The notes under the pieces were generated by a model. It was not told where the DNA came from. It made no database searches and saw nothing but the letters and a program-made list of their open reading frames with translations. This document shows positions 27,995 through 51,392 of a stretch of 56,542 nt of DNA, piece by piece (position 1 is the stretch's first letter; every line of letters starts with the position of its first letter). The position numbers and the translations under genes were made by a program. Source of the DNA: a virus (lineage: Duplodnaviria > Caudoviricetes); IMG/VR virus record IMGVR_UViG_3300017765_000004, positions 1-56,542 of that record; one strand, written 5' to 3'.

Positions 27995-30346
27995 ATGGCA
28001 AGTCCAAATATTAAGTTAAAGCGATCTGCTGTCGCTGATAAAAGACCAGCATTAAGTGGATTAGAGTTAGGCGAGGTAGCTCTTAACACTTATGATGGTC
28101 ATCTTTTTGTAAGAAGGGACACTAGTGGTGTTGGAATAGCGACCACAGTAACACTTCTTACACCATGGCAAGAAGCATATGCTGGTGGGACCATTGCCTA
28201 TAGTGGAAATGCTCAGGTTACTGGTATTTCTTCTGCTGGAGAACTTTCAGGTTTTACAAGACTTACAGCACCATTTGGATCTGTAGAGGAAATAATTGTT
28301 AAAGTAGTATCAAAAACTGGTGCTCATAGGTATAATGGGCAGGGGAGTGGATTAGGATATCTTCTTAATGATGTAGTATCACCATTTCTAACACTTACCC
28401 CTGGAAGAACATACAGATTTAATCAATCAGACTCTTCAAATAGCACTCATCCATTAAGATTTTATCTTGATGCAGCAAGAAATAATTCATATACTACAAA
28501 TGTAACAACTAATGGCACTGCTGGTAGTTCTGGTGCATACACTGAAATTGTTGTATCTGATGATACTCCATTAGTATTACACTATCAGTGTTCTGCTCAT
28601 GGATACATGGGCAATGCAGTCTACAATAATTCCAATCTTGTAAGTACTACTTTCCAAATCACTGGATTAGGTGGTGCTAATATCACTGGTGTTGTCACAG
28701 CTACAACTTTTAGTGGTTCTGGTGCGTCATTAACAAATTTAAATGGTTCAAATATCGCTAGTGGGACTGTTGCTGCAGCAAGAGTAGGTAGTCTCCCTGC
28801 CAGTAAAATTACAACTGGGACATTTGATGCTGCAAGAATCCCAACTCTTAATCAAGATACAACAGGAACAGCAGCTCTTGCAGAAGGACTGACAGGAACA
28901 CCAAGTATTTCTGTAACTAATGTTTCTGCTGCATCATCTGTTACTGCCACAAAGTTAGTTGTTAATGGCAACTCTACAATCACAGGAATTCTGACTGTTG
29001 GTACATCATCACTTAAGTTTGATGGTAGCAATAATATTATAAATGTTGGAACAGGTATAACAATAAATCATAGCTCTGGTATTTTTGTTGGTGGTAATGA
29101 CAATAATCTTCACTCTGCTGGTTTTGATGTAAGACAAATCAATGCTGCAGGTGTTGTTACTGCCACTACATTTAGTGGATCTGGTGCTTCACTGACTAGC
29201 ATACCTGGTGGTCAGATTACTGGTACAATTGCTGCTGTATCAGGTGCTAATCTAACTAGCCTTAATGCATCAAATCTTGGTTCTGGAACTATCCCTGATG
29301 CTAGATTCCCTGCCACCTTGCCTTCAGCATCAGCAGCAAACCTGACAAGTATTCCTGCTGCTAACTTGACAGGAACTGCTGCTGCGATTAATGGTTCAAA
29401 TATTACCAGTTTGAATGCATCAAATCTTGGATCTGGTACAGTTCCTGATGCCAGATTCCCTGCTACTCTACCTGCAGCATCTGGTGCTAATCTTACAGCA
29501 CTTAATGCATCAAATATTGCTAGTGGAACTCTTGCTGCAGCAAGAGTGGGTGTTCTTCCTGCTAGTAAAATTACATCTGGAACATTTGACGCTGCAAGAA
29601 TACCAACTCTTAATCAAGACACCACAGGTTCTGCAGCAACTCTGGTTGGCACATCAGTCACAATCACATCTAGTGGTATTCATCAGAACACTGGTGTATC
29701 TACATTCTATAGATTAGATGTTGATGGACTTTCACCTGATGCCACTGATTTTGGATCAGCAAATTTTGTTCCTATTGCGGATGGATCTGGTGGATGGTCA
29801 TGGGGATCTGTAGATTCTGCTGGTGCTGGATCTATTGATGGTATTACTGTCAGAGAAGAAGGTAGTGTAATTGGCACTGCAAATAGTATTTCTCAACTTA
29901 ATTTTGTAAGCAGCAATATTACAGCTACTGCAGTTGCTCTTGGTGCCACTGCCACAATCACTCTGTCTGATACTCCCTCATTCACATCAGGTGCATTTGT
30001 TAATGTAACTGCCACTGGTGGAGTTAATGTGACTGGTGTAGTCACAGCATCATCATATAGTGGTTCTGGTGCAAATCTCTCAGGCATCACTGTTGCTGGT
30101 ATTAGCACTCTTGGCACATCTGGATTTAAAGATGTTGTGATTTCAGGTGGTGCGACAGTTGGTGTTGCCACTGTCAGTACAGCACTTTATATGCCTCAGT
30201 ATACAACAACAGCAAGAGATGCTGCATCTTTTAATGAGGGTGCCATGATTTATAATACTACTACAAAGAAAATGGAGTTCTATAATGGAACTACATGGAC
30301 AAGCCTGCCAGGTGTCACACTGGGACTGGGAATGGGAGTCTTCTGA
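27995..30346 (+). CDS. Tail fibre-like protein with cupredoxin-like insert
   Basis: 'IKLKRSAVADKRP..LELGEVALNTYDG' N-terminus; 'TYRFNQSDSSNSTHPLRF...YQCSAHGYMG'; 'LNASNLGSGT' repeats; C-terminal 'GAMIYNTTTKKMEFYNGTTW'. TAAATA at 27944-27949. Confidence 0.78.
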   Translation: MASPNIKLKRSAVADKRPALSGLELGEVALNTYDGHLFVRRDTSGVGIATTVTLLTPWQEAYAGGTIAYSGNAQVTGISSAGELSGFTRLTAPFGSVEEIIVKVVSKTGAHRYNGQGSGLGYLLNDVVSPFLTLTPGRTYRFNQSDSSNSTHPLRFYLDAARNNSYTTNVTTNGTAGSSGAYTEIVVSDDTPLVLHYQCSAHGYMGNAVYNNSNLVSTTFQITGLGGANITGVVTATTFSGSGASLTNLNGSNIASGTVAAARVGSLPASKITTGTFDAARIPTLNQDTTGTAALAEGLTGTPSISVTNVSAASSVTATKLVVNGNSTITGILTVGTSSLKFDGSNNIINVGTGITINHSSGIFVGGNDNNLHSAGFDVRQINAAGVVTATTFSGSGASLTSIPGGQITGTIAAVSGANLTSLNASNLGSGTIPDARFPATLPSASAANLTSIPAANLTGTAAAINGSNITSLNASNLGSGTVPDARFPATLPAASGANLTALNASNIASGTLAAARVGVLPASKITSGTFDAARIPTLNQDTTGSAATLVGTSVTITSSGIHQNTGVSTFYRLDVDGLSPDATDFGSANFVPIADGSGGWSWGSVDSAGAGSIDGITVREEGSVIGTANSISQLNFVSSNITATAVALGATATITLSDTPSFTSGAFVNVTATGGVNVTGVVTASSYSGSGANLSGITVAGISTLGTSGFKDVVISGGATVGVATVSTALYMPQYTTTARDAASFNEGAMIYNTTTKKMEFYNGTTWTSLPGVTLGLGMGVF

Positions 30347-30347
30347 T

Positions 30348-30803
30348 ATGCGCTCTTTTAACCAGTTTATATCAGAAACAGCAACATCATCAGCTACGAA
30401 TAGTGTTGGCACTGATGGATTTACTAATGACTCAAATCCATCAGGACCTGTTGCTGGTTTTGATAAAAAATTGTTTAGGGGTGATGAAGATCTTCTATCA
30501 CAAGATTATCAGACAGCTGCAGAGACTGGTGAAAATAGATATAGATTTTCAAACATATATCCTGTAATGAAAGTTACTCTTGGTAATAATATGGGTGATG
30601 GCCCATCAATTGACTCCATGGTTGCAGCATCAAAAGAATTTGTCAATAAGATGGAGCAAACATCCCATGATACAGTAAAAAAGTATTTTACAGAGTTTAA
30701 AGAAGAGTGGAGTAATAAATATAAAAAGAGTATTGACTGCTCTAATCCTAAGGGATTTTCTCAAAAAGCACATTGTGCTGGTAGGAAAAAGAGATCAAAA
30801 TGA
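30348..30803 (+). CDS. Candidate internal head protein with capsid-targeting-like N-terminus and gp23 N-arm-like segment
   Basis: Start moved from 30285 to ATG 30348, 1 nt after the upstream TGA, giving MRSFNQFISE; contains 'SSATNSVGTDGFT...GPVAGFD' and a basic Cys-containing C-terminal module. The function is inferred. Confidence 0.65.
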   Translation: MRSFNQFISETATSSATNSVGTDGFTNDSNPSGPVAGFDKKLFRGDEDLLSQDYQTAAETGENRYRFSNIYPVMKVTLGNNMGDGPSIDSMVAASKEFVNKMEQTSHDTVKKYFTEFKEEWSNKYKKSIDCSNPKGFSQKAHCAGRKKRSK

Positions 30804-32656
30804 AGTGTAAACCAGGTTACTATTATTGTTACACTGATAAAAAGTGTAAAAAAATGCCAATGGGATATCACATTGGACGTGGTGGATATCTTGCTAAAGA
30901 TGATAATGAAAACAGTGAGAATGGTAAGAAAAATGGTAATGGTAAAAATGGTAATGGAAATGGTCACTCAAATGGCAATGGTGGTGGAAATGGAAATGGA
31001 GGAGGTAATGGTGGTGGAATGAGTGAGGCATCCAATCCTCGCATTCCCAGAAAACCAGGACAACCTGCAAATTCTAAAAAACACTCTGATCTCTACACTG
31101 ATGAGAATCCAAAAGGCACCATTCATGGTCTTGGATTTAAAGATGTTGCTACTGCAAAAGCATCTGTAAGTAAAATACGTAATTCATCAAGATCTCATGC
31201 TCATAAAATTCAGGCAGCTGTTGCCATGGAACAAAGAGCAAGAGAGATGGGTAAAACTTCAGAGGCAGCAGTTTACAGAAAGTTTATCAACTCAATGAAG
31301 GAGAAAACTAAGAAAATGAATGAATCTCACATTGATGAAGATCTAAGAGATTGGTTTGGGAAATCTAAATCAAAAGATGGAAAACCTGGTTGGGTTCAAT
31401 CAGATGGGTCTCCATGTGCAAATGAAAAAGGTGAAACAAAAACCCCCAAGTGCTTCTCATCTCAAAGATTAGCAAGTCTTAAAGCACAAGGTTCCAAGGG
31501 AAAAGCAAAAATTGCTGCAGCAGTCAGAAGAAAAAGAGAACAGGATTCAGGACAACAATCAAAGTCTGGAGGAGCTAAACCCACCATGGTTAAAACATTT
31601 GCTAAAAAAGATGACTATAAGAAGCATCCTTCAGGAGATAGATCTGAATCAACAAACTATGATCATCTTTCACCCATCTCAAGAAAAATTCTTGAGCAGA
31701 TTGATGGTGAGAGAGAACTGCAATATCTAGAGGAAAAGAATAAACCCACAAACCCATCACTGTGGTCAAGAGCAAAGGCACTGGCAAGATCCAAGTTTGA
31801 TGTGTATCCATCTGCTTATGCCAATGGTTGGGCTGCAAAGTGGTACAAGAAGAGAGGTGGTGGATGGAAATCTGTCAGTGAAGAAGTTGAAGTTAGTGAA
31901 GAAAGAAAACCAGGTGAGTCTCCTAAGGAATATGCTGCTAGAATGACCAAAAAGCATTCTGGTGGTAAGTCAAAGACTTATGATCCTATGAAGGACAAGA
32001 ACTTTGATCATGATAAGGCTGAAAGAACTCGCGGTTCTATGGAGGAAGAAGTAGTCAGTGAAGAAACATGTCCAGTCTGTGGATGTGATCCATGCCAGTG
32101 TTTGGAAGGAAATATTAAAGAGTCAGTAAGAATACCTGCACAAACAGGAAATGTCTATGCTGTGATCTTCTCGTGGAGAGCAAAGATGTATATGCTCAAA
32201 TTGTTCTTCCCTGAGATAAGAAAACCAAAGAGATCTGAAGTTGAGGATGCAATTCGTAAATTATATCCTGGTGCTACATTAAGGAGTTTCAATCTTACAC
32301 CATACCAACCAGGTGATTCATATCTTCATGCTGGAATGGATGAAGATATGGAGGAAGACAGCCTGGGAAAGCTTGAAGAGGGAACACCTGCATGGCAAAG
32401 AAAAGCAGGTAAAGACCCCTCAGGTGGTTTAAATCAGAAAGGTGTGGATTCTTACAGAAGAGCAAATCCTGGTTCAAAACTTCAAACAGCAGTCACTACA
32501 AAACCATCTAAATTAAAGAAAGGTTCCAAAGCTGCAAATAGAAGAAAGTCATTCTGTGCTAGAATGAAAGGTATGAAAAAGAGATTAACATCTGCTAAGA
32601 CTGCAAGAGATCCAGATAGCAGAATCAATAAGTCATTAAGAAAGTGGAATTGCTGA
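30800..32656 (+). CDS. Modular basic hypothetical protein (candidate protease-processed polyprotein)
   Basis: ATGA overlap with the upstream gene; K/R-rich modules separated by acidic [ILMV]xE linkers; Asn-Gly low-complexity tract. Confidence 0.75.
   Translation: MKCKPGYYYCYTDKKCKKMPMGYHIGRGGYLAKDDNENSENGKKNGNGKNGNGNGHSNGNGGGNGNGGGNGGGMSEASNPRIPRKPGQPANSKKHSDLYTDENPKGTIHGLGFKDVATAKASVSKIRNSSRSHAHKIQAAVAMEQRAREMGKTSEAAVYRKFINSMKEKTKKMNESHIDEDLRDWFGKSKSKDGKPGWVQSDGSPCANEKGETKTPKCFSSQRLASLKAQGSKGKAKIAAAVRRKREQDSGQQSKSGGAKPTMVKTFAKKDDYKKHPSGDRSESTNYDHLSPISRKILEQIDGERELQYLEEKNKPTNPSLWSRAKALARSKFDVYPSAYANGWAAKWYKKRGGGWKSVSEEVEVSEERKPGESPKEYAARMTKKHSGGKSKTYDPMKDKNFDHDKAERTRGSMEEEVVSEETCPVCGCDPCQCLEGNIKESVRIPAQTGNVYAVIFSWRAKMYMLKLFFPEIRKPKRSEVEDAIRKLYPGATLRSFNLTPYQPGDSYLHAGMDEDMEEDSLGKLEEGTPAWQRKAGKDPSGGLNQKGVDSYRRANPGSKLQTAVTTKPSKLKKGSKAANRRKSFCARMKGMKKRLTSAKTARDPDSRINKSLRKWNC
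30920..31018 (+). repeat. Asn-Gly low-complexity coding repeat (AATGGN)n
   Basis: Encodes NGKKNGNGKNGNGNGHSNGNGGGNGNGGGNGGG. Confidence 0.8.
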
Positions 32657-39549: not shown

Positions 39550-40092
39550 ATGAGCGCCCTTAATCCAGTTGGAGTTAATACTATACTAAATGGTCCTGGC
39601 GTTAGTAGAACGTCATCACCAATCCCACATCAAAGTGACACCATTAGAGTAGTTGCTAAAATTGATGGAGTTCATATTGCTTTTGGAGCAAATCCAACAG
39701 CTACTGATTTAAATTTTTATGTTGGGACAACAGGGGCAGAAGAGATATCCATTGGACGTCCATCCTCACAAAGAGTTGTTGGTGTAACTACTGGTACAGC
39801 AACAATTATTGATTTCCCTGAGGGCACAGGGTCACCATTTGGTGTTGGTGATGCAGTAACATTGACTGCACCTGGTCAAACTGACTTTAATTTCACACAT
39901 AAACTTGTCACTGCAATTGATAGTTCTTCTGGGCCATCAGGTTATTTCAGTGAAAGAATCACCATTGATCATAATTCAGCATCTGTGACTGATACTTTTG
40001 ATTCAAGTTTACATGCAGAATTAAGAGGATCACTTAAATTCAATGTGTCAGGTTTAGGCACAGCATATGTCCAACAAGTTCAAGTTTCCTGA
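39550..40092 (+). CDS. Conserved hypothetical protein between portal and prohead protease (probably virion-associated)
   Basis: 180-aa beta-rich ORF preceded by TAAATA at 39515-39520. Confidence 0.75.
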   Translation: MSALNPVGVNTILNGPGVSRTSSPIPHQSDTIRVVAKIDGVHIAFGANPTATDLNFYVGTTGAEEISIGRPSSQRVVGVTTGTATIIDFPEGTGSPFGVGDAVTLTAPGQTDFNFTHKLVTAIDSSSGPSGYFSERITIDHNSASVTDTFDSSLHAELRGSLKFNVSGLGTAYVQQVQVS

Positions 40093-40098
40093 GGTACT

Positions 40099-40749
40099 AT
40101 GAAACTAATCAGAGAAGAAATAGAATCAGTTGATTTTCTTGTAGAAGAAAGAAATGGCAAGAAATCAATGTATATTGAAGGTGTCTTCTTACAAGGAGAT
40201 ATCAAAAATCGTAATGGCAGAATGTATCCAATGGAGACTCTGAGAAAGGAGGTCCAAAGATACACTGAAAACCACGTAAACTCAGGAAGAGCACTTGGTG
40301 AACTGGGACATCCAGATGGACCAACTGTAAATCTTGACAGAGTATCACATAAGATTGTTTCATTGAGAGAAAATGGAAGCAATTTTATTGGTAAAGCAAA
40401 AATTCTTGGCACCCCTATGGGTAAGATTGCACAAAATCTTATTGATGAAGGTGTCAAACTGGGTGTTTCATCCAGAGGCATTGGTTCTCTGAAACCTACA
40501 AGAGAGGGAGTCAATGTTGTAGGTGATGATTTCATGCTGGCAACAGCAGCTGATATTGTTGCTGATCCTTCAGCACCTGATGCATTTGTTGAAGGAATCA
40601 TGGAAGGAAAGGATTGGGTATGGGATGGTGGTGTGCTTCGTGAGAAGTATGCTGCAAAAACATACAAAGAGATTAACACACTTGTCACTCAACAACAACT
40701 TGATGAGAAGAAGTTGGATCTCTTCAATAAGTTCCTGAATAACCTTTGA
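40099..40749 (+). CDS. gp21: Prohead core protease gp21
   Basis: 'YIEGVFLQGDIKNRNGRMYP', 'ALGELGHPDGP', 'LGVSSRGIGSL', 'DIVADPSAPDAFVEGIME'. Confidence 0.96.
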   Translation: MKLIREEIESVDFLVEERNGKKSMYIEGVFLQGDIKNRNGRMYPMETLRKEVQRYTENHVNSGRALGELGHPDGPTVNLDRVSHKIVSLRENGSNFIGKAKILGTPMGKIAQNLIDEGVKLGVSSRGIGSLKPTREGVNVVGDDFMLATAADIVADPSAPDAFVEGIMEGKDWVWDGGVLREKYAAKTYKEINTLVTQQQLDEKKLDLFNKFLNNL

Positions 40750-40803: not shown

Positions 40804-41889
40804 ATGTCTCGTGGAGATTTACAAGAAATGGAGGCAAGCACAAAGCAATCCAAGACTGCTGTGAATGCCAATGCGAAACCTGCTGATCCTATGCCCACTA
40901 TGGCTGATCCAGGAACACAACTGGGTTCTGTAGAGGACCTTGGAGGACCAACACCTTATAACTACAAACCTGATGATGACTCTGCTAAGCTCAAAGAGCC
41001 TAAGCTTGCCACTGTCAAGGATGTAGTTACCAAAGGTGCTAAGCCTGCTGATCCTATGCCTAAAGGTATGAAGGAAGACGGGGAAGTAGATACTGAAGCA
41101 ACTATTGAAGAAGATCAAGAGATCACTGATGAAGTTGTAGAAGAATCTGAGGAGACAGTTGAAGAGTATGATATTGAAGAGGATGTAGATGCCCTCTTTG
41201 GTGGTGAAGAACTCTCTGAGGAATTCAAAGAGAAAGCAAGAACAATCTTTGAAGCTGCTCTTGGAGCAAAAGTCAAAGAAATCCAAGAGTCTCTTGAGGC
41301 TCAGTATGCTGCCAGAATTACTGAAGCAACTGAGGAACTGAAAGGTTCACTCCAAGAGAGAGTAGATTCCTATCTTGAGTATGTTGCTCAAGAATGGATG
41401 GTAGAAAATGAACTTGCTGTAGAGCAAGGACTTAAAACTGAGATGACTGAATCATTCCTTTCAGGAATGAAGGGTCTTTTTGAAGAACATTATGTAACAA
41501 TCCCTGAAGATAAGTATGATGTCCTCGAGAATATGGTAGACAAACTTGATGAAATGGAAACCAAGCTCAATGAGCAGATCAATAAGAATATTACCCTGAA
41601 CAAGAGACTTGCTGAGTCTTCTGCTCAAGGAATCTTAGATCAAGTTTCTGATGGTCTTGCAGACACTCAGAAAGAGAAGCTCGCTTCACTTGCTGAAAGT
41701 GTTGAGTTTGAAAGTGAGCAAGAATATCGTGAAAAGCTGGAAACCCTGAAGGAGTCATACTTCTCCAGAACAACCACATCTAAGGCAACACCTGAGACCC
41801 TCTCTGAGGGTGTAGATAGCACTCCTTCTCCTACTACTAGAAGCATGGATGCCTATCTCAGAACTCTGGGTGCCTTCAAAGGTAACTGA
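40804..41889 (+). CDS. gp22: Prohead core scaffold gp22
   Basis: Acidic and helical; 'LSEEFKEKARTIFEAA', 'VDSYLEYVAQEW'; located between gp21 and gp23; TAAATA cluster at 40764-40784. Confidence 0.93.
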   Translation: MSRGDLQEMEASTKQSKTAVNANAKPADPMPTMADPGTQLGSVEDLGGPTPYNYKPDDDSAKLKEPKLATVKDVVTKGAKPADPMPKGMKEDGEVDTEATIEEDQEITDEVVEESEETVEEYDIEEDVDALFGGEELSEEFKEKARTIFEAALGAKVKEIQESLEAQYAARITEATEELKGSLQERVDSYLEYVAQEWMVENELAVEQGLKTEMTESFLSGMKGLFEEHYVTIPEDKYDVLENMVDKLDEMETKLNEQINKNITLNKRLAESSAQGILDQVSDGLADTQKEKLASLAESVEFESEQEYREKLETLKESYFSRTTTSKATPETLSEGVDSTPSPTTRSMDAYLRTLGAFKGN

Positions 41890-41932: not shown

Positions 41933-43378
41933 ATGTTCCAATCAGAACATCTGCAGGAAAAGTGGAGTCCACTTCTCGACTATGAAGGTCTTGATCCAAT
42001 CAAAGATTCACATAGAAGAGCAGTAACCGCTGTCCTGTTAGAGAACCAAGAAAAATTTTTAAAAGAAGAGCAAGCATTTGGATCAGGTATGAACCTGATG
42101 GAAGGACCTCCTGCTTCATCTGCTGCTAATAGTGCAGGCACAGGTGGATTCACTGGTGGTGCCACTGCTGCTGGTCCAGTAGCAGGTTTTGACCCTGTTC
42201 TGATCTCCCTGATCAGACGTGCAATGCCTAACCTGGTTGCATATGACCTGGCTGGTGTTCAACCAATGAATGGTCCTACTGGACTGATTTTTGCAATGAG
42301 ATCCAGAAAGGATTCTCAATCTGGCTCAGAAACCTTCTTTGATGAAGTAGATACAGCATTCTCTGGGCAGAATGTTGGACTGGGTCTTACTGCTGCCAAC
42401 TCTGCTGCACAGCAGGCTGTTGGTATGGGTACAACTTCACAAGGTGGAACTAATCCATCTGTACTGAACCCTGTTGGTGGTGCTGGTGATAACCAGGCTT
42501 ATAACACAGGCACTGGCATGACCACTGGTGAGGCAGAAGCCCTTGGCACAGTAGATGCTGATGGTGCCTTCAACCAGATGGCATTCTCAATTGAGAAAGT
42601 CACTGTAACTGCCAAGTCAAGAGCCCTGAAGGCTGAGTACTCACTGGAGCTTGCTCAGGACCTCAGAGCCATCCATGGTCTGAATGCTGAAGCAGAACTT
42701 GCTAACATCCTCTCTACTGAGATCCTTGCTGAGATCAACAGAGAAGTCATCAGAACAATCTACAAGGTTGCTGAGCAAGGTGCTGTTTCTAACACTGCCA
42801 CTGCTGGCATGTTTGACCTGGACATTGACTCCAATGGTAGATGGTCTGTAGAGAAGTTCAAGGGTCTTCTGTTCCAAATTGAGAGAGATGCTAATGCAAT
42901 CGCTCAAAGAACAAGAAGAGGAAAGGGTAACATGGTTATGTGCTCTGCTGACGTTGCTTCAGCACTGACCATGGCTGGTATCCTGGATTACACCCCTGCC
43001 CTGAACTCCAACCTGAATGTTGATGACACTGGCAACACATTTGCTGGCACCATCAATGGTAAGTTCAGAGTTTACATTGACCCATATGCTGCTAACCTGA
43101 CTTCAGCAAATGCTGCCTCTGCCTCTGGCAACCAGTATTATGTTGTTGGTTACAAAGGCACATCACCTTATGATGCAGGTCTCTTCTATTGCCCATATGT
43201 ACCTCTGCAGATGGTACGTGCAGTTGGAGAAGATACCTTCCAGCCCAAGATTGGCTTCAAGACCAGATATGGTCTGGTTGCCAACCCATTTGCTGAAGGA
43301 ACCACCCAAGGTCTGGGTAGACTGCAAGTCAATAGCAACCGCTACTACAGAAGAGTTGCTGTTAAGAACCTCATGTGA
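41933..43378 (+). CDS. gp23: Major capsid protein gp23
   Basis: 'LQEKWSPLL', 'AGFDPVLISLIRRAMPNL', 'GVQPMNGPTGLIFAMRS', 'KSRALKAEYSLELAQDLRAIHG', 'FYCPYVPL', 'QPKIGFKTRYG'. Confidence 0.99.
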   Translation: MFQSEHLQEKWSPLLDYEGLDPIKDSHRRAVTAVLLENQEKFLKEEQAFGSGMNLMEGPPASSAANSAGTGGFTGGATAAGPVAGFDPVLISLIRRAMPNLVAYDLAGVQPMNGPTGLIFAMRSRKDSQSGSETFFDEVDTAFSGQNVGLGLTAANSAAQQAVGMGTTSQGGTNPSVLNPVGGAGDNQAYNTGTGMTTGEAEALGTVDADGAFNQMAFSIEKVTVTAKSRALKAEYSLELAQDLRAIHGLNAEAELANILSTEILAEINREVIRTIYKVAEQGAVSNTATAGMFDLDIDSNGRWSVEKFKGLLFQIERDANAIAQRTRRGKGNMVMCSADVASALTMAGILDYTPALNSNLNVDDTGNTFAGTINGKFRVYIDPYAANLTSANAASASGNQYYVVGYKGTSPYDAGLFYCPYVPLQMVRAVGEDTFQPKIGFKTRYGLVANPFAEGTTQGLGRLQVNSNRYYRRVAVKNLM

Positions 43379-50753: not shown

Positions 50754-51392
50754 ATGAAAACTTTTTCAGAATTCATTGCAGAATCAGAACAACAGTCAGG
50801 TGCTCTTGCTGCACACTTAGCTAGAACTGCTGCAGATAGAGCATCACAGTCTGGAACTGTTGGTGGAACTGAAAAGAAGTTTGAGAAGAGACCTTCACTT
50901 GGTTTAAAACGACCATCATTTAAGAGAAAGGATAAGATAAAAGTTAAAGGACCAAGAAAACCAGCACCATATGGAAGTGGACCAAGACCACAAAAGGCAT
51001 TACCTGGATCACGTGATGATGTGCAAAAGGTAAATGTGAAGGTTGAAAAACCAGCAGAGAAGAAACCAGCACTGAAACCTTCTACCTCAAGCACATCCAT
51101 TGCTAAGAGATCATCACAAAGTATTAGAAATGCTGGTAAGAATACAGCAGGATCTGTTCAGAAAGCAAGAGTCAGAGTTGAACCTCAACAAAGACCTGCA
51201 CTGCAACCTGCTGCTAAGAGGCCAGCATTAAGACCTGCAGCAGAAAGAGGTAAGATAAAACCAGCAGCATCAAGACCTGCACTTCCTCCTGGATCAGGGA
51301 ATCCAATATCACCAATGGTAAAAGCAGCAGCAAAACAAGCAGCACTCAAGGCAGCACAACAGAGAAAGGCACTACCTCCTGCCAGATCATAA
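50754..51392 (+). CDS. Candidate internal head protein (capsid-targeting N-terminus; K/R/P/A-rich)
   Basis: Begins MKTFSEFIAE; very basic, low-complexity body with RPAL repeats; has its own late promoter. Confidence 0.7.
   Translation: MKTFSEFIAESEQQSGALAAHLARTAADRASQSGTVGGTEKKFEKRPSLGLKRPSFKRKDKIKVKGPRKPAPYGSGPRPQKALPGSRDDVQKVNVKVEKPAEKKPALKPSTSSTSIAKRSSQSIRNAGKNTAGSVQKARVRVEPQQRPALQPAAKRPALRPAAERGKIKPAASRPALPPGSGNPISPMVKAAAKQAALKAAQQRKALPPARS

Follow-up and report, generated by a model that had tools for sequence, protein, structure and literature searches.

The internal proteins of the phage T4 head (IPI, IPII, IPIII and Alt) begin with a short leader, in which positions 4 and 7 are hydrophobic and positions 8-10 form a protease site (PMC9026906). 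In IPIII the first 10 residues are enough for head targeting; residues 4 and 7 of this capsid-targeting sequence govern the targeting and residues 8 and 10 the processing, which is blocked by Asp at position 10 (PMC9026906). In a 2023 review of the T4 head, the recruitment and placing of non-essential proteins in T4-type proheads is called mysterious (PMC9958956). In gp23, the major capsid protein of T4, the N-fist lies at residues 66-91 (PMC7136217), and upon expansion of the head this region goes to the outer surface, forms the N-arm and N-fist and helps to bind Soc (PMC9546572). Here we describe a small open reading frame (ORF; 30348-30803, plus strand) in the IMG/VR virus record IMGVR_UViG_3300017765_000004, whose whole stretch of 56,542 nucleotides is called the window below. 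The window belongs to a T4-like cyanomyovirus, and its gp23 (41933-43378) is best matched by the gp23 of Synechococcus phage S-B43 (83.6% identity). The product of the small ORF combines a leader of the T4 type with a copy of the mature N-terminus of gp23.

The protein resembles the T4 internal proteins in being small, partly basic and non-core, in occurring in a phage with the protease gp21 and the scaffold gp22, and in belonging to a family with varied cargo behind one leader (PMC9026906). Unlike them, it has no relation to a named family (a Pfam scan gave 0 families at E up to 0.1), and some members of its family are leaderless; moreover, its predicted mature N-terminus copies and co-varies with the capsid N-terminus, a feature for which the consulted part of the T4 account has no mention. 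Compared with gp23 itself, the copied segment likewise stands directly behind a gp21-type site and has the same start and end motifs and the same lineage-specific variants, whereas an HK97-fold body (A and P domains, E-loop) was not found in the 151 residues or their AlphaFold2 model, and only residues 14-42 match. Soc is not known to have a leader and attaches to the capsid from the outside, and we know of no cyanomyovirus counterparts of it. Its binding in T4 depends on the N-fist region of expanded gp23 (PMC9546572), a likeness relevant only for the leaderless subfamily (11/120), as the window protein has a leader; no similarity to Soc appeared in the Pfam scan of the small protein, which was not accompanied by a Soc-aimed similarity search. 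A looser analogy is offered by DarA-Hdf of phage P1; these accessory head proteins are internal, occupy defined sites on the shell and exit together with the DNA (PMC12810830). They differ in belonging to another phage group, and the consulted part of that source mentions no mimicry of a capsid protein.

Leader-bearing internal head proteins are a known kind, and we found no account in which the mature N-terminus of a capsid protein is copied and original and copy evolve in concert. The literature on cyanophage internal proteins and capsid-targeting sequences, supplements excluded, contains no description of this family. Neither a virion proteome of a phage with this gene (in the literature, the supplements of which could hold one) nor a capsid structure of a cyanomyovirus or T4-like cyanophage (in the PDB or the literature) was found.

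Copy of the gp23 N-fist and its co-variation with gp23

The small gene and the gp23 gene of the window are divided as follows.

30348..30803, plus strand: putative small head-protein gene, 151 amino acids plus stop; 166 IMG/VR relatives and at least 1360 protein clusters
30348..30377, plus strand: capsid-targeting-type leader of 10 residues, ending Ile-Ser-Glu, cut predicted after Glu10 (from homologue leaders and the rule given in PMC9026906)
30378..30464, plus strand: copy of the gp23 mature N-terminus (N-fist-like), residues 11-39 (DNA and protein alignment, PHROG, hidden Markov model, co-variation)
30465..30701, plus strand: conserved family core, residues 40-118, 14 invariant positions (40-sequence alignment; AlphaFold2)
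30702..30800, plus strand: basic C-terminal module, residues 119-151, swappable across the family (10 Lys/Arg against 1 Asp)
41933..42103, plus strand: gp23 propeptide, residues 1-57, ending Leu-Met-Glu (alignment to T4 gp23)
42104..42193, plus strand: N-fist region of gp23 (residues 58-87), the segment that is copied (alignment to T4 gp23)
42194..43378, plus strand: remainder of the gp23 major capsid protein (83.6% to S-B43 gp23; T4 gp23 structures, E = 1.9e-82)

The sequence-only reading of this DNA had matched 30387-30464 to 42116-42193 in gp23, with 17/26 identical residues. This match is ungapped, with 54/78 nucleotides identical, and falls within the BLASTP alignment of residues 14-43 with gp23 residues 62-91 (18/30 identical); the register holds as well, the copy beginning 3 residues past Glu10 and its counterpart 4 past Glu57 of gp23. 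As a single comparison with its own gp23 the small protein reaches E = 0.021, confined to residues 14-43, and given how much Gly, Ser, Ala and Thr the segment contains, the significance of this pair taken by itself is marginal. The small protein of Synechococcus phage S-SM2 matches its own gp23 at 22/32 residues (E = 2e-12). When the window protein was scanned against the PHROGs, the sole match was the “major head protein” family phrog_696, on the copy (residues 14-42, E = 4e-4). A hidden Markov model (HMM) built from gp23 N-fist segments only produced 247 hits among 16762 ORFs of 262 loci, divided into 142 gp23 proteins, 95 members of the small family and 10 others; reciprocally, the small-family profile matches the gp23 N-fist in 20 of 25 gp23-bearing contigs. 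Residues 58-87 of the window gp23 align onto the T4 N-fist, and the small protein has what is characteristic of the gp23 class, an N-fist segment behind a predicted maturation cut. The S-SM2 pair, the PHROG match, the gp23-only HMM and the reciprocal profile confirm, at the level of sequence, that a chance resemblance is untenable.

Co-variation was analysed in 14 non-redundant phages with both genes on the same genome or contig. The segments were cut by alignment columns, all 14 x 14 combinations of small protein and gp23 were aligned globally, and the pairing was permuted 500,000 times. In this set, which is small and in part of shared ancestry, the mean identity is 0.521 for cognate and 0.386 for non-cognate combinations (permutation p = 8e-6; p = 9e-5 for alignment scores), and the cognate excess is retained when the 10 pairs with two long segments are taken alone (p = 1e-5). 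Identical residues in cognate pairs amount to 19/22 in S-SM2, 22/25 in locus L083 and 19/28 in L196. The lengths of the segment in the two proteins are also correlated (Spearman 0.63, p = 0.016), and in S-SKS1 and L210 the segment is short in both. In the window, the small protein and gp23 share an unusual start that lacks the usual Pro-Thr-Asn. All this takes place in a part of gp23 that is hypervariable between lineages (96 gp23 N-termini), while the rest of the protein is ~80% identical across phages. Since no greater likeness within genomes would be expected of paralogues whose separation predates the divergence of the phages, the excess argues for concerted evolution, and on the evidence of these alignments the copy evolves in concert with its own gp23. 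Conservation of the motif in homologues and co-variation with gp23 were among the points on which the sequence-only reading had staked itself, and both were found: at the end of the motif, 40 sequences retain Ala, Gly and Asp at 90% or more, and the co-variation has the p value of 8e-6 given above.

Codons help to distinguish how the likeness is kept. Among identical residues, the fraction with the same codon is 0.38 (270/710) in non-cognate combinations; it is above this baseline in L196 (0.63), the window (0.53) and L041 (0.50), and at or below it in L083 (0.36) and S-SM2 (0.26), despite their having the most similar peptides. The former three point to DNA exchange not long ago, whereas S-SM2 and L083 point to a peptide maintained by selection while the synonymous sites drifted. 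The distance between the two genes varies among phages: the small gene lies 174-1713 nucleotides downstream of gp23 in L049, its near-duplicate L051, L056 and L083 (three distinct arrangements), and in the window its start is ~11.6 kb upstream of the gp23 start.

DNA exchange can be seen, in addition, in one lineage whose segment is long. In two loci from two samples, L186:4439-5317 and L190:4168-4509, gp22 and the gp23 propeptide run on, from a point within the copy, into the core of the small gene, and their proteins are 86% alike over the first 113 residues. From the copy onward, the identity of L186 with the normal small-gene locus L187 is 98.9%, and L187 has exact words of 44 nucleotides in common with L186 and 30 with L190. 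The gene order of both corresponds to a circular shortcut (gp20, gp21, gp22, join, TerL). In two of four public runs, contigs follow L186 through the copy and then continue, by translation, into gp23 coding sequence, and no listed contig piece from any of the four spans the L186 join itself. The “fusion” protein P0049 was consequently rejected as a gene, its join being unsupported, and the L186/L190 fusion is taken as an assembly chimera or a rare recombinant across near-identical direct repeats ~11.5 kb apart. Such a shared repeat yields chimeric contigs in metagenome assemblies and calls for caution with these phages.

Family layout and a second family with the same unit

A scan of IMG/VR gave 166 relatives of the small protein, from which 80 loci were kept, and when a protein collection was searched with the family profile, at least 1360 clusters out of 7999 scored candidates had E values of 0.001 or lower. 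No functional name occurs among the 120 best-listed homologues, a few of which are labelled “hypothetical protein” or bear gene-call descriptors. The nearest isolate with the gene is S-SM2 (SSM2_108, annotated as hypothetical); 15 of 21 phage records in the isolate collection match the C-terminal module alone. A PDB sequence search with the family returned nothing meaningful, the best match (E = 0.15) being a designed protein.

The family has a common layout of leader, N-fist copy, invariant core of ~80 residues and swappable C-terminal cargo. In the 40-sequence family alignment, 31 members have a 10-residue leader with the pattern of targeting residues 4 and 7; the window leader has Phe4, Phe7, Ile8 and Glu10. 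A leader ending hydrophobic-hydrophobic-x-Glu is present in 105 of the 120 best homologues, the others being leaderless (11), of another kind (3) or truncated (1). The copy starts with Pro-Thr-Asn in most of the 40 members, and at its end Ala36, Gly37 and Asp39 are kept at 90% or more. The core, residues 40-118, has its 14 invariant positions in the same alignment. An AlphaFold2 model calculated from these 40 sequences has a mean predicted local distance difference test (pLDDT) score of 59, with residues 16-78 mostly below 50; helices are predicted at residues 4-13, 88-129 and 137-149, and residues 40-87 are without a stable fold.

Behind the core, members have the basic module of the window, nothing, another basic tail, a Cys-rich/Asn-Gly-rich fusion or a fusion to the module of the next ORF, so that the unit of leader, copy and core is found fused to at least four different C-terminal modules. 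The next-ORF module of the window is fused to the core in L041 and L088. Three fusions are of the Cys-rich/Asn-Gly-rich kind, and two of them (L082 and L085) continue into another domain, which is taken as PF02643, precomputed on related proteins.

Several loci depart from the common layout in ways worth recording. In L049:4619-5017, position 10 of the leader is Asp, and a hydrophobic-x-Glu follows nine residues on, directly before the copy; this arrangement is consistent with selection favouring cleavage immediately before the copy. L150:5237-5977, downstream of gp23, begins with an N-terminus of leader type, followed by a stretch rich in Lys and Glu, the module found in the next ORF of the window, the window-type basic module and then an internal second leader-like stretch; it has no N-fist segment and looks like a head-cargo polyprotein cut by gp21. 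In L002:2932-3390 (S-SKS1 SWZG_00088), a weaker second N-fist-like stretch can be seen by eye behind an internal Ile-Lys-Glu near the C-terminus; it was not reported by the gp23-segment HMM.

The 10 hits of the gp23-segment HMM outside gp23 and the small family include the L190 chimera and two fragments of gp23 lying at contig ends; a family of basic proteins of ~100 amino acids accounts for the rest. Five distinct rows of this second family were found by the HMM, at the following loci.

L052:6394-6696, L053:9059-9370, L054:9307-9618, L064:2597-2905 and L065:12219-12527: basic proteins of the second family

These proteins consist of a 27-residue leader ending Glu-Glu, the copy and a Lys/Arg-rich tail, and they occur in contigs whose small-family member is without the usual leader. 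As far as sequence comparison can tell, the unit of leader and N-fist copy is portable, being carried by a second, unrelated family.

Head genes and neighbours in the window

The genes for the large terminase, sheath, tube, portal, prohead protease, scaffold and gp23 are present in the window in T4 order. Those closest to our subject, with the neighbour of the small gene and a further leader-type ORF, are listed below.

30800..32656, plus strand: downstream gene of 618 amino acids with DUF6321 at residues 537-616; phrog_727; its start overlaps the small-gene stop
40099..40749, plus strand: prohead maturation protease, gp21 type (phrog_207, E = 7.9e-84)
40804..41889, plus strand: head scaffolding protein, gp22 type (phrog_237, E = 1.9e-113)
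50754..51392, plus strand: second leader-type ORF, 212 amino acids, no N-fist copy (pattern scan)

The small ORF starts 1 base past the end of a tail-fibre-like ORF (27995-30346), and its stop overlaps the start of ORF 30800-32656 via ATGA. The latter ORF has a Cys-rich N-terminus, an Asn-Gly-rich run, the phrog_727 match and the C-terminal DUF6321; 480 phage records, Pelagibacter phages included, contain relatives of its C-terminal part, and its modules are fused to the small-protein core in L041, L088, L081, L082 and L085. A -1 frameshift fusion of the two ORFs at an A-rich slippery-type run (30786-30791, the heptamer 14 nucleotides before the stop) was tried and rejected. The -1 frame at the heptamer is open in the window and closed by a stop in L011 and L029, and the codons vary; of the 15 window-type loci examined, 11 keep the ATGA overlap (the window itself and another 10).

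The leader pattern was searched in all six frames of the window and has two matches, the small ORF and ORF 50754-51392. The leader of the second is near-canonical and ends Ile-Ala-Glu; this ORF is probably another internal head protein, to judge from its leader. It has no N-fist copy, so leader-bearing proteins do not need the copy as a rule. An ORF of 180 amino acids (39550-40092, plus strand; phrog_682, function unknown), situated between the genes for portal and protease, has the same position in L186 and L190 and may be a cyanophage-specific prohead component.

Proposed placement of the copy in the head

We propose that the product of the small gene is an internal head protein, accessory to its T4-like cyanomyovirus, which would be targeted to the core, cut by gp21 and then use the contacts of the gp23 N-terminus, and we give this reading a probability of about 0.5. 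The leader would bring the small protein into the scaffold core before the shell closes, and gp21 would cut it off after Glu10. The new N-terminus would then act as a gp23 N-terminus, using the contacts of gp23 residues 58-87, whether these are made to the scaffold core within the prohead, to the N-fist docking surface at shell expansion, or to both. In this way the core and cargo would be held at the shell, the cargo being fused or, as here, encoded by the overlapping next gene.

The claim of a leader cut by gp21, made already in the sequence-only reading, stands in part. Residues 4, 7, 8 and 10 of the window protein fit the rule known for T4 (PMC9026906), and protease and scaffold genes are both present in the window; the claim does not extend to the 11 leaderless proteins among the 120 best homologues. 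Those proteins (~9%) start almost at the copy, and because they exist, a cleavable leader that targets the core cannot be a complete explanation. They belong to a series of observations that weigh against our proposal. Its functional steps beyond the sequence features, among them presence in the particle and cleavage, are inferred from sequence. Own gp23 ranks first in only 4 of the 14 pairs; the copy of AG-345-O18 is closer to the gp23 of L083 than to its own, and the lengths of copy and gp23 segment are discordant in L056 (24 and 12) and L059 (20 and 13). The middle of the variable segment is of low complexity and could be a mere linker, homogenised by conversion between conserved flanks. 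The family is also accessory: within the isolate collection its N-terminal part is matched only by S-SM2, S-SKS1 and two single-cell viruses, and no match to the core was found in the 25 gp23-bearing contigs, which are fragments and show only that the gene is not universal. A complex prediction with two copies of gp23 88-481 and small protein 11-118 gave a score of 0.00, which weighs neither for nor against binding.

Three other accounts of the copy have to be weighed. According to the first, which we regard as rather unlikely, the segment is an extended signal for core targeting or protease docking, held by the scaffold core or the protease, and serves incorporation and the timing of cleavage instead of binding to the mature shell. 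In the unexpanded T4 head, gp23 residues 66-105 are disordered and lie inside; contact with the scaffold core is thought probable by the authors of that work, and three of the head-length mutations discussed there (A66D, A94V and G97S) map to these residues (PMC9546572). T4 internal proteins co-purify with gp22 (PMC9026906). Both the small protein and gp23 keep Pro-Thr-Asn just after the cut and the same end motif, and leaderless members could enter by the segment alone. However, these members are without the Pro-Thr-Asn part, and the leader-bearing ORF 50754-51392 and L150 have no segment, which indicates that it is not needed for targeting or cutting.

The second account develops that of the sequence-only reading: the copy, after cleavage, would fill N-fist or N-arm sites left unfilled by gp23, for example at the portal or the vertices, and so rivet the protein to the shell; we consider it improbable. 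The T4 N-fist contacts four neighbouring subunits (PMC9958956), and in the five portal-facing subunits it is disordered for lack of a partner, so that unused partners would be available there (PMC7136217). Cyanomyoviruses are without g24, as well as gp67 and gp68 (PMC2984593), and internal proteins fixed at penton-hexon junctions have a precedent in DarA-Hdf (PMC12810830). The co-variation and length correlation with gp23, the peptide identity kept without codon identity in S-SM2 and L083, and the resemblance of leaderless members to an already processed form would all be in keeping with a socket mimic. Against it, the docked T4 N-fist is on the outside after expansion, while a leader-targeted protein starts inside (PMC9546572), and hence a socket on the inner shell, as the sequence-only reading had it, is not what the available T4 structural accounts describe. 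In addition, the long and short segments paired in L056 and L059 cannot fit the same socket, and a conserved socket, as expected from a gp23 that is otherwise ~80% identical, would not be expected to allow so hypervariable a segment.

The third account treats the copy as an evolutionary by-product, a partial 5' duplication of g23 joined to another body, whose likeness is kept by gene conversion between direct repeats close to each other and which has no role of its own. DNA-level exchange is evident, the two genes are 0.2-1.7 kb apart in L049/L051, L056 and L083 and ~11.6 kb apart in the window, and the segment middle is of low complexity. We nevertheless hold it to be quite unlikely. The end of the segment is kept at 90% or more over 40 diverse members, S-SM2 and L083 combine a peptide identity of 86-88% with a codon identity at or below baseline, which speaks for selection acting on the peptide of either gene, the segment is still present in the leaderless subfamily, and the same unit occurs on a second, unrelated protein family; the codons, the leaderless retention and the second family are what disfavour a neutral origin. 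A chance likeness of two low-complexity stretches, or a non-coding ORF, could appeal to the E value of the window pair and to the Gly, Ser, Ala and Thr content of the segment and can be dismissed in view of phrog_696, the S-SM2 pair, both profile searches, family conservation and co-variation.

A bolder and tentative reading, to which we would give little weight, is that the copy is a working surrogate of the N-fist, docking, once gp21 has cut off the leader, with or for gp23 N-fists at unused lattice partners (candidates being the portal and the vertices of these heads without gp24) and pinning core and cargo to the shell. Contact with the hypervariable N-terminus of gp23, or with a lineage-specific socket, would then demand that the segments stay alike, and this demand would explain both the repeated fixing of conversion products and the constant peptide in S-SM2 and L083.

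A very common, unnamed family of marine phages thus couples a known type of leader to a copy of the capsid-protein N-terminus that tracks gp23, and offers a clean example of how, within a phage genome, an accessory gene and an essential structural gene evolve in concert. If the copy is a placing signal, it would constitute a second rule for head targeting that can be read from sequence, the role of the N-fist in assembly could be tested in a cultured phage (S-SM2), and a natural tag for loading cargo into cyanophage capsids would be at hand. If the copy does act as a surrogate N-fist, the leader and N-fist copy would together form a natural, portable capsid-anchoring tag, carried by at least two unrelated protein families.

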